From positions 818 through 64,817 of the forward strand of contig JAKZTI010000009.1 in assembly GCA_047517145.1 (NCBI GenBank): DNA of 64,000 nucleotides, read 5' to 3'. The notes beneath the pieces are model-generated. The model ran no database searches, was not told where the DNA came from, and saw nothing but the letters and a program-made list of their open reading frames with translations. The DNA comes from Gammaproteobacteria bacterium (GTDB lineage: Bacteria > Pseudomonadota > Gammaproteobacteria > Eutrophobiales > Eutrophobiaceae). The position numbers and the translations under genes are program-made. Shown in pieces: positions 25,732 through 30,096 of the stretch. The stretch's first letter is position 1; each line of letters begins with the position of its first letter.

Positions 25732-26538
25732 ATGGAAATAAACCAAGAGCTAATTGAAGAAATTTGTCAGATTGCCAGCAATGCTGCGAATTGCATTCTT
25801 GAAATTTATGATACTGATTTTTCTGTTGAGAGTAAGAAAGATCGTTCTCCCTTAACCGCTGCTGATCTGGCTGCACATAATACCATCTGTACGGCCCTCG
25901 AAAATTTAACACCTGATGTACCGGTGCTGTCAGAAGAGTCTTCGGAACTGCCTTACGCCGTGCGCAGTCAATGGTCGCGTTACTGGCTGGTTGATCCATT
26001 AGATGGCACGCGTGAATTTATCAAGCGTAATGGTGAGTTCACAGTCAACATCGCCCTGATTGAAAATGGGCAACCAAGCCTGGGGGTGATCACTGTTCCT
26101 GTCACAGGTGTTTGCTATTACGCCGCAACATCACTCGGCGCTTTTAAAACGAATGCTGATGGAATCACAGAATCGATAAAGATAAAAAAATCCGAGCTCA
26201 ATAAATTAACCATCGCTGGCAGTCGTTCACACGGGAGTGAACAACAGCAGGCCCTTATCGATCAGTTGGATGGCGCTGAAATTATTGCTATTGGTAGTTC
26301 CTTGAAATTTTGCCTGGTCGCAGAGGGCAAGGCAGATATCTACCCAAGGTTCGGATTAACTTCAGAATGGGATACCGCTGCGGCACAATGTATTGTTGAA
26401 GAGGCCGGTGGCTGTGTTGTCGATATGGATTTCAAACCAATTCGTTACAACACTAAAGACTCCCTGCTGAATCCAGAGTTTCTGGCAATTGCAGACCCAT
26501 CATTTAACTGGAAGCAGTATTTGGACAAAATAAAGTAA
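25732..26538 (+). CDS. cysQ: 3'(2'),5'-bisphosphate nucleotidase
   Basis: 268 aa of the inositol monophosphatase family, with WLVDPLDGTREF and GSSLKF motifs. Confidence 0.88.
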   Translation: MEINQELIEEICQIASNAANCILEIYDTDFSVESKKDRSPLTAADLAAHNTICTALENLTPDVPVLSEESSELPYAVRSQWSRYWLVDPLDGTREFIKRNGEFTVNIALIENGQPSLGVITVPVTGVCYYAATSLGAFKTNADGITESIKIKKSELNKLTIAGSRSHGSEQQQALIDQLDGAEIIAIGSSLKFCLVAEGKADIYPRFGLTSEWDTAAAQCIVEEAGGCVVDMDFKPIRYNTKDSLLNPEFLAIADPSFNWKQYLDKIK

Positions 26539-26540
26539 GG

Positions 26541-26882
26541 CTATTCTTCTTCAGGGAGATCTTCTGGCAAAGAATAAGCAGATACACAATCAAGATTAGA
26601 CATATAAATCAGTCCGCCATGGGGCTTGTTTATCCCGACCTCATCATGGATAAATCCAAAAATCTCATCCGCATCTTCACTGGAAACTGTTACGGTTAAA
26701 ATCTCTTTTTCTGTTTGCTCACCAACACCTCTATATGCCAGCGGTGTTAATTTCCCCAATCCTCTTGCTGTATTAATATTGGCCGTGACAATACCCTTTT
26801 CTCCCTTGAGGGATTTAACAACATCAAAACAGATACCTTTGGGCAATATACAAGTAATCAATTTTTGATTGTTGATAAACAT
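26541..26882 (-). CDS. PII-like (GlnB-fold) small regulatory protein, copy 2
   Basis: 113 aa. A segment (KLITCILPKGICFDVVKSLKGEKGIVTANINTARGLG) resembles the PII N-terminal region. It is the last gene of a three-gene minus-strand operon. Confidence 0.6.
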   Translation of the reverse strand: MFINNQKLITCILPKGICFDVVKSLKGEKGIVTANINTARGLGKLTPLAYRGVGEQTEKEILTVTVSSEDADEIFGFIHDEVGINKPHGGLIYMSNLDCVSAYSLPEDLPEEE

Positions 26883-27280
26883 TACTGATTGCTCACTGCA
26901 GCAGATTTGGCACCAGCTTCTTCTTTTTCTAGTTTCTCGGCAATTTCTCTGGGTATGTATGTTGCCGCTTTGTCCAAAGGAGTTAAATAGATAAATCCCA
27001 TTCCCGGGGTATCAAGATTTCCAGCGATGTACATCCTTTCAAGAATTCTATCTGCTTGATCCTTTGCCACCACGACGTTGATCACTTCCTTATCAACTTC
27101 AATAGCCAGCGCGAGGATACCCAGCCGTTCCCTGACACCTTCCCCTCGTGCATAATGGACAGTTGCACCTTGCGCACCTGCCTCCTGTGCCGCTTTGACG
27201 ATGGTATCGGCAATTCCCCTTTGAACAATACATGTGATTAGTGAGACATCCGTTAATACCGTGACTTCTCTTTTGCTCAT
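26882..27280 (-). CDS. PII-like (GlnB-fold) nitrogen-regulatory-protein-family protein, copy 1
   Basis: 132 aa. The segment VSLITCIVQRGIADTIVKAAQEAGAQGATVHYARGEG resembles the GlnB KKIEAII...VGITGMTVTEVKGFG core. Its start overlaps the upstream membrane-protein gene. Confidence 0.65.
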   Translation of the reverse strand: MSKREVTVLTDVSLITCIVQRGIADTIVKAAQEAGAQGATVHYARGEGVRERLGILALAIEVDKEVINVVVAKDQADRILERMYIAGNLDTPGMGFIYLTPLDKAATYIPREIAEKLEKEEAGAKSAAVSNQ

Positions 27281-29052
27281 GTGACTGCTACCTCCACATT
27301 ATTATTGTCCTCAAGATCCTCTGCATGGTGTCTGCGATTAATCTTCCACTGTACCCATAATCCTGTAGATAACACCGCAATTATGGGGCAGATAGAGGCC
27401 ATAGATAAAATACCAAAGCCTTCGACAGAGCCCATGGCACTACCAAAGCCCAGTCCCATGGCCAAAACCAGGGGCACTGTGACGGGCCCCGTTGTCACTC
27501 CGGCACTATCCCAGGCAATATTTACAAATTCCTCCGTAGACAGAGAGGTCAATATCAATCCAAAGACATAGCCTGGCAAGAGTAAATAGGCGATGGGGAT
27601 ATCAAAGATAATTTTTAATACGCCGATCGCAATACCAAAAGCAACCCCGATAGAAACTGCATACATGAGCATGGATTTTTTAAACGCACTATTGGTGAGG
27701 TTTTCAACTGTTGTGCCCAATGCGTTCAGTGCCGGTTCAGCCAATGTTGCACCCAGGCCTAAAAACCATGCGAACAAGGCAGCAATTGAAATACCCATTG
27801 TTAGAGAATAAAGAGGCGAGTTCTCTACTAGCGCGATGTTGGTAAAAGCAGCCGGCACCAGACCACCCGATTGACCGCCCAGCTTTGCCAGGCCATAGCT
27901 CAGCCCAACATTAAAAACCACCATGCCAATAACACAGAGAGAAATACCATAAATTGTCATCGCCTTATTTTTTATTTTTTCATTGAGAATGAAATACATT
28001 ACAAGAATCAGAAATAATACCAGAGGAATAATCGCTCGCACTCCCAGTATTATCTCTTGCCATGGTGTCAGTTCATGCCAGGGAATAACATGGGCAGCGT
28101 TGTCAATTTGACTCGCACTTGCAATGATTGAATCAACGGATGTGGTTGAAGAGACAAATATTGCCAATATCATCACACCAATGATCGGAAATAATGAAGC
28201 AAGCGTCACAATCCCGAACCCGGACAATGACGAATGACCTTTCCCAGCAGACGATGCGATGCCTATCCCCAAAGAAAGCACCAATGGAACCGTAACCGGT
28301 CCGGTGGTGACAGCGCCACAATCCCAGGCAAGGCCTAAAACCTTGCTCAGCTCCGGATCGGTCATGATATAAAGTGTCAGACCGAGTGTTGGTATCATCG
28401 TACAATAAATAAAGGGTTTCAGGCTCCAGCCGTTGATAAAACGTAGCGTTCCAAGAACTGCTGCCAGACCAACGCCCATGCCAACGATTAATACCAACAC
28501 ACCAGACCATTCGTTGAGTAAGGTATATAAATAGGGCGCCTTAGCAACATCTACAATCGAACCGGCAGTTTTTAATGCGCCTATAGCCGGTTCAGCAAAT
28601 GTCACGCCTATCCCTAACAAGAAAGTAACCGTGAGAACCACGTATAGTGGGGATTTGGTGGGTAAAATATTGCCTATGGTTTCACCAAAGGGCATCAAAC
28701 CAACCTTCAGACCTTCCATGAACAGCATCAAGCCAATGATTACGGAGACCAACCCTGCCGTTATCACCCATGAATCTGTCAAATCCTGTCTTAAAATAAA
28801 GAGTTGAAACAAAATCAGATATAACGCTAAAGGTAAGACTGCCTTTATCTGATCATATAACCTGATACTGACATAAGGCTGGACCAGTCGGTATATATCT
28901 ATATTTCTTAATTTTAACTTTGGCGGGACATAGGGAATATCGTTGCCAGCAGAATCCTGCTTGATTTCGGGGGCGAGATCATTGTAGCTGATCAACTTCT
29001 GTTGAATCGTTATCTCTCGAATATAAGACCCAAATCGTATCTTCCTGTCCAC
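27277..29052 (-). CDS. polytopic membrane protein made of two tandem DUF1538-like repeats (putative transporter)
   Basis: 591 aa, highly hydrophobic. Two homologous halves each contain LAWDCGAVTTGPVTVPLVLSLGIG / IAWDSAGVTTGPVTVPLVLAMGLG and FAEPAIGALKTAG / LAEPALNALGTTV signatures. Confidence 0.7.
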   Translation of the reverse strand: MDRKIRFGSYIREITIQQKLISYNDLAPEIKQDSAGNDIPYVPPKLKLRNIDIYRLVQPYVSIRLYDQIKAVLPLALYLILFQLFILRQDLTDSWVITAGLVSVIIGLMLFMEGLKVGLMPFGETIGNILPTKSPLYVVLTVTFLLGIGVTFAEPAIGALKTAGSIVDVAKAPYLYTLLNEWSGVLVLIVGMGVGLAAVLGTLRFINGWSLKPFIYCTMIPTLGLTLYIMTDPELSKVLGLAWDCGAVTTGPVTVPLVLSLGIGIASSAGKGHSSLSGFGIVTLASLFPIIGVMILAIFVSSTTSVDSIIASASQIDNAAHVIPWHELTPWQEIILGVRAIIPLVLFLILVMYFILNEKIKNKAMTIYGISLCVIGMVVFNVGLSYGLAKLGGQSGGLVPAAFTNIALVENSPLYSLTMGISIAALFAWFLGLGATLAEPALNALGTTVENLTNSAFKKSMLMYAVSIGVAFGIAIGVLKIIFDIPIAYLLLPGYVFGLILTSLSTEEFVNIAWDSAGVTTGPVTVPLVLAMGLGFGSAMGSVEGFGILSMASICPIIAVLSTGLWVQWKINRRHHAEDLEDNNNVEVAVT

Positions 29053-29187
29053 TTAGCTATCCCCCACTAAACTGACACTTATCTATACAGAGCAACGGTA
29101 GTATAGTACCCCCTTTGATTATAGTTGACCTAAATAATTATACATTGATGGAGATCAAGCAAACCACTTTTTATGGGTGACCACATT

Positions 29188-29550
29188 TTAAGTAAACAAA
29201 ACACATCCCCAGACAAGCACTACATTAAGTAAAGCGATCAACACCGCCGCTGAACCAACATCTTTTGCCCGACCTGATAGCTGGTGATGCTCTCCTCCAA
29301 ATCTATCTACAACTGCTTCCATGCCAGAGTTAATCAATTCAGTAATCAACACCAGGACAATCACACTCACAAGCAGAGCAATTTCTACGCCAGTTTCTCC
29401 AAGATAAAAACCCAACGGGACAAGAATAATGGAAAGATATATTTCCTGTCTAAAGGCCGCTTCATTTTTGAAGGCGGCAGTCAGCCCTTGCATGGAAAAA
29501 CCAAGAGCCTTGAACAAACGTTCAAGGCCAGCAGTTCCCTGTGAAGACAT
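29188..29550 (-). CDS. dgkA: diacylglycerol kinase
   Basis: 120 aa with three TM segments and conserved DgkA residues (...EAVVDRFGGEHHQLSGRAKD...). Confidence 0.88.
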   Translation of the reverse strand: MSSQGTAGLERLFKALGFSMQGLTAAFKNEAAFRQEIYLSIILVPLGFYLGETGVEIALLVSVIVLVLITELINSGMEAVVDRFGGEHHQLSGRAKDVGSAAVLIALLNVVLVWGCVLFT

Positions 29551-29598
29551 GGTGTTGAATTAATATTTTTTAATCGGAATGTTCTTACAATAAGGCCG

Positions 29599-30096
29599 TC
29601 ACAATAAAGCAAGAGCAGCGTTGTAATTTGGCTCGTCGGCAATTTCGGAAACCAACTCTGTATGTATCACCTTGTCATTCTCATCTATGACAACAATGGC
29701 ACGTGCAGTAATCCCCGCCAGTGGGCCATCTTCAATCAACACGCCATAATCTTTTGCAAATTTACGTGAGCGCATCATTGAAAGCGATACAACATTTTCA
29801 GTGCCTTCTGCTGAACAAAAACGTGACATGGCAAAGGGAAGATCTGCAGAAATCATCAGGAAGACAGTGCCTTCTCTGCTCGCAGCCGAATCATTAAACT
29901 TTTTTGTCGATAAAGCGCAAGTGGGGGTATCAAGACTGGGAACGATATTCAGTAATTTTTTTTTACCACTGTAGTTGTCCAGGCCAATATCAGCCAGCTC
30001 ACTATTCACCAACGAGAAGGCGGGCGCCTGTTCACCAATAGCAGGCAAATCTCCGTTGGTATTTATTTCATTCCCATGCAAGGTTATTTTAGCCAT
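29599..30096 (-). CDS. tpx: thiol peroxidase (atypical 2-Cys peroxiredoxin)
   Basis: 165 aa with the Tpx active site (VPSLDTPTCA) and a resolving Cys further downstream. Confidence 0.9.
   Translation of the reverse strand: MAKITLHGNEINTNGDLPAIGEQAPAFSLVNSELADIGLDNYSGKKKLLNIVPSLDTPTCALSTKKFNDSAASREGTVFLMISADLPFAMSRFCSAEGTENVVSLSMMRSRKFAKDYGVLIEDGPLAGITARAIVVIDENDKVIHTELVSEIADEPNYNAALALL

Follow-up and report, generated by a model that had tools for sequence, protein, structure and literature searches.

A conserved operon joining a fused DUF1538 membrane protein, a predicted relative of the UmpAB cation/proton antiporter, to two putative non-canonical PII-like regulators

What does a duplicated DUF1538 membrane protein carry, and what do two different PII-like proteins encoded directly behind it do for it? 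This question is raised by three genes on the minus strand (positions 26541-29052) of a 64,000-nucleotide stretch from an uncultured marine gammaproteobacterium (assembly GCA_047517145.1, contig JAKZTI010000009.1, positions 818 to 64,817), hereafter the window. An earlier note had read them, from the letters, as an internally duplicated DUF1538-like membrane protein followed by two divergent PII-like proteins, together making up a ligand-regulated transporter. All three open reading frames were found where it had placed them: a fused DUF1538 membrane protein of 591 amino acids (27277-29052), a PII-like protein of 132 amino acids, here called PII1 (26882-27280), and its divergent paralogue PII2 of 113 amino acids (26541-26882). 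The stop codon of the transporter gene overlaps the start codon of PII1 by four nucleotides (ATGA, 27277-27280, minus strand; GTCACATGAGC), a sign of translational coupling, and at the next junction (TAATG; CAGTAATGT) the PII1 stop codon (26882-26884, minus strand) and the start codon of PII2 have one base in common. Judged from these junctions, the locus is a self-contained operon whose three genes are predicted to be translationally coupled. Our preferred reading, to which we give a probability of about one half, is that the membrane protein, a member of the DUF1538/UmpAB family, is a secondary ion transporter that would exchange cations for protons and be gated by a ligand-sensing PII-like regulator, possibly a heteromeric one.

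The membrane protein is of the DUF1538 family (PF07556) in both its halves. Pfam matches it twice, with 352.6 bits against a cutoff of 22.6 (E 7.6e-106), and the halves are 31% identical to each other (E 5e-31), in agreement with the duplication that had been proposed. The signature motifs were found one per half, FAEPAI and LAEPAL as previously described, LAWDCGAVTTGPVTVPLVL and IAWDSAGVTTGPVTVPLVL with Leu or Ile as the first residue rather than Ala or Ile. The NCBIfam equivalog models for UmpA and UmpB (NF041627 and NF041628) match residues 65-299 at 212.8 bits and residues 338-575 at 169.2 bits, below their cutoffs of 490 and 500; the N-terminal half corresponds to UmpA and the C-terminal half to UmpB. 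Proteins of this fused type outscore the split and Clostridial branches of the family, described below, against both models (213-246 bits for UmpA, 168-169 bits for UmpB). Because the scores stay below the curated cutoffs, the protein is a relative and not an equivalog of UmpAB, and is best seen, at the level of sequence, as a fused sister lineage. It can be divided into an N-terminal extension of about 60 residues, probably cytoplasmic, a UmpA-like repeat (residues ~65-303), a linker, a UmpB-like repeat (~334-575) and a basic C-terminal tail. Its AlphaFold2 model is all-helical, with a mean predicted local distance difference test score (pLDDT) of 74 and a predicted template modelling score of 0.75, and no solved structure sharing its fold was found.

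UmpAB is the one characterised member of the family. In Halomonas zhaodongensis its two DUF1538 subunits form a Na+(Li+,K+)/H+ antiporter, as reported from complementation of E. coli KNabc and from assays on everted vesicles (PMC5484666), so that the substrate is less of a blank than had been supposed. Both systems consist of two homologous seven-helix units of the same Pfam family that are needed together, the order of the halves in the window matches that of umpA and umpB, and the stop and start codons of umpA and umpB overlap as well. In contrast to UmpAB, the units in the window are joined in one polypeptide, carry the additional N-terminal extension and score less than half of the equivalog cutoffs. 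They also share an operon with two PII-like genes, whereas the UmpAB paper mentions none and its 4.2-kb clone ended after umpB (PMC5484666). Another study ranks DUF1538 within the 20 Pfam features that best predict the optimal growth pH (PMC13255231), a hint at a role in cation or pH homeostasis.

The N-terminal extension (28873-29052, residues 1-60) deserves a separate remark. It is conserved and rich in Lys and Arg, with invariant R6, F7, G8, P28, D33, G36, R49, D52 and R55; it is missing from the split A subunits and from the Clostridial fused proteins, and it has no counterpart in the UmpA model. The extension, modelled at low confidence, could serve the second PII protein as a docking site. 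At three related loci of Rhodospirillaceae and gammaproteobacterial origin (L037:4212-6608, L047:4200-6617 and L053:4332-6629), the open frame of the transporter gene runs about 170-210 codons further upstream (765-805 amino acids), which is either an artefact of choosing the first start codon or an extra N-terminal domain.

How do the two repeats lie in the membrane? Seven membrane segments per repeat were defined from the helix boundaries of the model, and the Lys and Arg counts of alternate loops were compared. The resulting bias was positive in 70 of 78 N-terminal halves and in all 61 A subunits of split systems, and negative in every one of 78 C-terminal halves and 76 B subunits; the halves of both Clostridial fused proteins show the same opposite signs. 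Following the positive-inside rule, this indicates that the repeats insert in opposite orientations. The 591-residue protein is therefore predicted to be an antiparallel pseudo-heterodimer of seven plus seven segments that begins and ends in the cytoplasm. Dual-topology families such as EmrE/SMR and Fluc/CrcB likewise consist of homologous units with opposite Lys/Arg bias, encoded as adjacent gene pairs or as fused inverted repeats, and DUF1538 proteins share this pattern of adjacent pairs or one fused inverted-repeat protein. However, the DUF1538 units are much larger (about seven helices, broken at conserved motifs), belong to an unrelated family and come with a dedicated soluble regulator. 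Each repeat carries an invariant Glu, in the AEPA motif, and an invariant Asp, in the motif AWD-x-x-x-VTTGPVT (xD[S/A]GG...TG across branches), in all branches sampled. The AlphaFold2 model places both residues at helix breaks, which would be the usual signature of ion-binding sites; these invariant intramembrane acidic residues count toward cation/proton exchange.

Both small proteins appear to have the PII fold, as the earlier note had proposed. PII1 passes the cutoff of the Pfam P-II model (PF00543; 37.8 bits against 25), whereas PII2, at 14 bits, does not. The two are 30% identical (BLASTP E 2e-16), and hhalign relates them with a probability of 99.2%. The AlphaFold2 model of PII2 (pLDDT 79.5) has the order beta-alpha-beta-beta-alpha-beta, and the top 50 Foldseek matches to it were all GlnK or GlnB structures (probability 1.0, template modelling score ~0.65). 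For PII1, the PDB contains weak matches to archaeal GlnB and GlnK (profile E 3e-6). The assignment of PII1 is thus drawn from its Pfam match and the hhalign result, and that of PII2 from its model.

Alignment with canonical PII proteins suggests that the ligand pocket has changed. In PII1, in PII2 and in the single PII of split DUF1538 systems, the T-loop is about five residues shorter than the canonical one and lacks Tyr51, while all three groups have E-K-E at its base and so keep the equivalent of K58. The canonical B-loop TGxxGDGKIF is replaced, by LDTPGMGFIY in PII1 and INKPHGGLIY in PII2; the core is P-G-x-G in PII1 (P-G-M-G) and the single PII, and P-H-G-G in PII2. K90 has become Phe or Leu, and none of the three groups has an Arg at the positions of R101 and R103. 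The invariant residues of PII1 cluster in two loops, as RG-x-G-x-RERLG (T-loop) and TPGMG (B-loop), and its C-terminal helix is conserved. In PII2, the T-loop ARGxGKxTPLAYRG is almost invariant within its clade, and its Y-R-G resembles the loop tip of GlnK. Taken together, PII1 and PII2 are predicted to combine the PII fold with a non-canonical pocket. In Hydrogenovibrio halophilus DSM 15072, the PII2 position is taken by a gene (L083:7030-7488) for a protein of 152 residues that follows the overall PII2 pattern and has gained terminal extensions; this protein has lost the ARGxG/YRG T-loop motif and the PHGG B-loop motif and has no Pfam match.

Is this gene arrangement peculiar to the window? 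A genome scan returned at least 586 stretches bearing the motifs, and the following counts rest on the best 80 loci (59-96% identity). These come from Gammaproteobacteria, Nitrospinota, Nitrospirales, Zetaproteobacteria, Campylobacterales, Rhodospirillaceae, SAR324, Bdellovibrionia, Myxococcota, Planctomycetota and Gemmatimonadota, with H. halophilus as the only cultured organism. The order fused transporter, PII1, PII2 is kept in 69 loci, and eight of the 11 exceptions lie at contig ends. The genes flanking the triad vary between lineages, and its recurrence is far beyond chance. The four-nucleotide overlap between the transporter gene and PII1 is preserved in 50 of the 70 loci in which it could be measured, and the gap between PII1 and PII2 is at most 40 nucleotides in 93% of loci, so that the survey recovers the triad as a translationally coupled unit. 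Because the median identity to the window is 65% for PII1 (74 loci) and 40% for PII2 (70 loci), against 66-67% for the transporter halves, PII1 seems to co-evolve with the transporter and PII2 to be its fast-evolving partner.

Some loci of this survey call for comment on their own account. In Zetaproteobacteria (Mariprofundaceae and Ghiorsea), a SpoIIE/PP2C-type phosphatase of about 560-590 residues is encoded directly downstream of the cassette (L040:3774-5426, L062:3299-4984 and L055:6617-8386); in L055 it directly follows the transporter gene and the PII genes are apparently missing. This neighbour recalls PphA, the PP2C enzyme that dephosphorylates cyanobacterial PII. The genome Pseudomonadota MAG016 has two full triads on separate contigs (L043 and L049), which are either paralogous modules or a redundancy of the bin.

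Beyond the triad, the pairing of DUF1538 with PII proteins turned out to be family-wide, in three gene architectures. Besides the fused transporter with two PII genes, as in the window, there are split systems in which an A and B pair is followed by one PII gene of 105-122 codons. These occur on plasmids of Methylocystis and Chelativorans and, in a metagenome scan whose query was two close B subunits of the split type, at essentially all of the 80 loci with room. In Clostridia (Peptoclostridium, Vescimonas and Paraclostridium), a fused transporter is followed by one protein of 222-224 residues, a tandem of two PII domains. This natural tandem fusion is the strongest available evidence, at the sequence level, on how the two PII units are used, and it argues that they act in a single complex. 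The Peptoclostridium acidaminophilum pair (L084:6441-7997) adjoins genes for a ClC-family H+/Cl- exchanger and an amino-acid permease, and so has a neighbour concerned with ion homeostasis too.

The DUF1538/UmpAB family comprises about 3100 clusters at 50% identity in many bacterial phyla and has eukaryotic relatives. Among ten long relatives (707-1332 residues), none was found to have a PII domain fused to the transporter, Pfam recognising DUF1538 only. Three of the four that were looked up are EukProt (eukaryotic) entries (P0390, P0366 and P0426), two of them named Paulinella micropora and Lentomonas sp.; they are 44-48% identical to the window protein, 774-991 residues long, with long extra N-terminal or linker regions and two DUF1538 matches as their only Pfam domains. 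This suggests that the fused transporter may have been transferred into protists, where an operon-encoded PII partner would be impossible. The NCBI pipeline names the bacterial proteins 'DUF1538 domain-containing protein' and 'P-II family nitrogen regulator'. In the literature that we searched, the pairing is undescribed, and no PII-like protein is linked to DUF1538 or to a cation antiporter; within the searchable papers, DUF1538, PF07556 and UmpAB led only to the UmpAB paper and to works citing it. PII-like proteins also came up in a Tn-seq study of Borrelia (BB0017, of the DUF2179 family) and in an RB-TnSeq preprint on Methanococcus, neither of which bears on the pairing. The DUF1538-dedicated PII-like branch is conserved and apparently undescribed.

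How might the parts work together? By homology with UmpAB, the transporter would exchange monovalent cations (Na+, K+ or Li+) for protons and serve salt, pH or K+ homeostasis. The conserved PII1 and the divergent PII2 would form one regulatory complex, possibly a heterotrimer like that of NifI1 and NifI2, which could use its conserved T-loops to dock on the transporter, at the asymmetric cytoplasmic face. A small-molecule signal would then cause the complex to open or to block transport. Because the equivalents of K90, R101, R103 and Y51 are missing, this signal would not be bound in the canonical manner of ATP, ADP or 2-oxoglutarate. Only one neighbour of the triad recurs across lineages, a Na+/H+ exchanger of the CPA type with a fused cyclic nucleoside monophosphate (cNMP)-binding domain. 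It is present at nine of the 80 loci, in Nitrospinota, two gammaproteobacterial lineages and Rhodospirillaceae, with variable position and strand, and hints at cation or pH homeostasis. These exchangers (L009, L010, L013, L016, L018, L019, L029, L037 and L047) have about 690-850 residues, with the cyclic-nucleotide-binding domain at the C-terminus.

The closest parallels are found in known PII-controlled systems. As in GlnK-AmtB, the genes of a PII-fold protein and a membrane transporter share a transcript, contact is probably made through the conserved T-loop, and the Y-R-G apex of PII2 resembles Y46-R47-G48 of GlnK. However, the two transporters are unrelated. GlnK and AmtB each form a homotrimer with three-fold symmetry; the window would instead combine an antiparallel pseudo-heterodimer with two PII paralogues, and the latter lack Tyr51 and the residues for ATP, ADP and 2-oxoglutarate. 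SbtB-SbtA, built around the cyanobacterial Na+/bicarbonate transporter, follows the same plan of a dedicated regulator from the transporter's own operon, with a non-canonical PII-like gene directly behind that of the secondary transporter under its control. In contrast to that system, the window encodes two PII paralogues instead of one, PII1 and PII2 have no Cys-containing C-terminal extension and do not conserve the adenine-nucleotide residues, and the transporter has no SbtA match in Pfam. The analogy with GlnK and SbtB that had been drawn earlier thus holds for the fold and probably for the mode of action, and fails for the effector, since the canonical nucleotide and 2-oxoglutarate residues are missing.

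NifI1 and NifI2, which inhibit nitrogenase in methanogens, resemble the pair in the window in being two PII paralogues with adjacent genes, and one of them has a short T-loop. In the Methanosarcina nitrogenase supercomplex they form a 2:1 heterotrimer on an asymmetric target (PDB 9p1x; bioRxiv 10.1101/2025.09.09.675011). Sequence comparisons with the PDB place this structure among the best matches of PII1, of PII2 and of the single PII in split systems. Unlike the window proteins, NifI proteins keep the canonical ADP, ATP and 2-oxoglutarate residues, act on a soluble enzyme and are linked to nif genes; they match PII1 and PII2 weakly (E 0.003-0.007) and are not orthologues. By analogy, it is plausible that PII1 and PII2 combine into a mixed trimer, turned towards the asymmetric cytoplasmic side of an antiparallel pseudo-heterodimer. 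A bolder proposal, which we hold as tentative and rather doubtful, is that PII1 and PII2 form an obligate heteromeric complex, the second of its kind after NifI1,2 and the first on a membrane transporter, whose asymmetry would match that of an antiparallel inverted-repeat DUF1538 transporter of unsolved fold, and which would gate cation/proton exchange through a non-canonically bound ligand such as a cyclic nucleotide or an ion.

Could the module serve another purpose? The PII-like proteins may gate the uptake of another substrate, mainly bicarbonate or inorganic carbon as in SbtA-SbtB, and report carbon or energy status. Many of the closest relatives are chemolithoautotrophs (Nitrospina, Nitrospirales, Nitrosomonadaceae, Mariprofundaceae/Ghiorsea, Hydrogenovibrio halophilus, Sulfuricurvum, Thiohalocapsa and lucinid-clam symbionts), a transporter co-transcribed with a non-canonical PII protein mirrors SbtA/SbtB, and cNMP-binding and adenylate-cyclase genes lie near some loci, and SbtB binds cyclic AMP. 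Nevertheless, we consider a carbon transporter unlikely. No RuBisCO, carboxysome or carbonic-anhydrase gene is found among the recurrent families of the 138 immediate neighbours, and the triad is present in heterotrophs too (Halieaceae, Bdellovibrionia and Myxococcota), with relatives in Clostridia. Moreover, Pfam finds DUF1538 and no SbtA family in the membrane protein, its sole characterised relative is a cation/proton antiporter, and an invariant Glu and Asp inside the membrane are better suited to cations than to anions. That PII1 and PII2 are ordinary nitrogen-regulatory GlnB/GlnK paralogues, reporting nitrogen status by sensing ATP, ADP and 2-oxoglutarate, is what their database names ('nitrogen regulatory protein P-II' and 'P-II family nitrogen regulator') would imply; PII1 is also above the Pfam P-II cutoff, and the best solved relatives are GlnB and GlnK. 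This is very improbable, as the shorter T-loop, the missing Tyr51, the replaced B-loop, the change of K90 to Phe or Leu and the absence of R101 and R103 are common to all three groups. Besides, no nitrogen gene (amtB, glnA, nif) is found beside the cassette in the window or among the 138 neighbours of the 80 loci, and a tblastn search of the window for canonical glnB/glnK, with an E. coli GlnB sequence as query, returned nothing at E<=0.01.

The loss of the canonical ligand-contact residues would also fit PII-like proteins that have kept the fold, lost signalling and become structural or assembly subunits of the DUF1538 complex, such as a cytoplasmic cap or a chaperone. The fast evolution of PII2 (median identity 40%, against 66% for the transporter) and the loss of its conserved loops in H. 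halophilus point the same way, as does the activity of UmpAB in E. coli from a clone with no PII gene (PMC5484666). However, PII1 is conserved like the transporter. Its invariant residues fall within the T-loop (including E-K-E) and B-loop, regions that form the inter-subunit ligand clefts and the target contacts of PII proteins. The equivalent of K58 is kept, and other non-canonical PII-like proteins (SbtB, PstA/DarA and CutA) do bind ligands, so that a purely structural role seems quite unlikely. A ligand-gated cation/proton antiporter also has points against it. The link between PII proteins and transporter rests on gene order and a natural fusion, and a single PII suffices in the split systems, so that heteromery is not required in the family. 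The Na+/H+ exchanger is adjacent at only nine of 80 loci. Transfer of the substrate from UmpAB by homology is weak (213 bits against 490, 169 against 500), and the UmpAB activity comes from one heterologous study in E. coli KNabc, in which the clone was active without any PII gene (PMC5484666). Finally, the membrane model is of only moderate confidence, and the antiparallel arrangement rests on the loop bias. On balance, a ligand-regulated transporter, as the earlier note had proposed, is still the most economical reading; the small proteins were not found to lack the PII fold, nor the membrane protein to belong to a well-characterised transporter family. Regulation by direct binding is inferred from linkage and fusion.

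The surroundings of the operon are unremarkable. The transporter frame starts with GTG at 29052, seven nucleotides downstream of a Shine-Dalgarno sequence GGGGGA (29060-29065), and this start is taken as correct because the N-terminus (M-x-K/R-x-IRFG...) is kept in orthologues. Upstream, an intergenic region of 135 nucleotides (29053-29187) separates the operon from dgkA and holds, besides the Shine-Dalgarno sequence, a possible extended -10 element spotted by eye (TGTATAAT, 29137-29144); a consensus promoter scan found no match upstream of the operon, and the promoter is therefore a candidate only. No riboswitch was detected, either as an Rfam match at E<=1 in 26000-30000 or at the gathering score in 13 related loci, and two tRNAs were the only RNA matches across the whole window. 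Downstream, a convergent gene of the inositol-monophosphatase family (25732-26538), probably cysQ, ends two nucleotides from the PII2 stop codon, too close for a terminator to fit between the genes. For the operon, the closest hairpin resembling a terminator (26462-26478) is weak and lies inside that convergent gene. The rest of the window is ordinary chromosomal housekeeping DNA (gltB, pilQ, PBP1A, priA, argS, thiSG and trmB).

Few signal integrators of microbes are as widespread as PII proteins, and the well-understood cases of transporter control, GlnK-AmtB and SbtB-SbtA, have symmetric trimers on both sides. The three architectures described here are suited to dissecting how a regulator with a three-fold fold can act on an antiparallel target with two-fold pseudo-symmetry. 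If the two proteins do form an obligate heteromeric complex, they would define a new and widespread branch of PII-like signalling, present also beside the split and the Clostridial DUF1538 systems. The module merits follow-up for its breadth, for the unsolved fold of its transporter and for the chance of a second heteromeric PII complex. It offers a testable handle on what DUF1538 proteins carry in marine bacteria, on which ligands non-canonical PII pockets may bind, and on whether NifI1,2 is the sole heteromeric PII complex.

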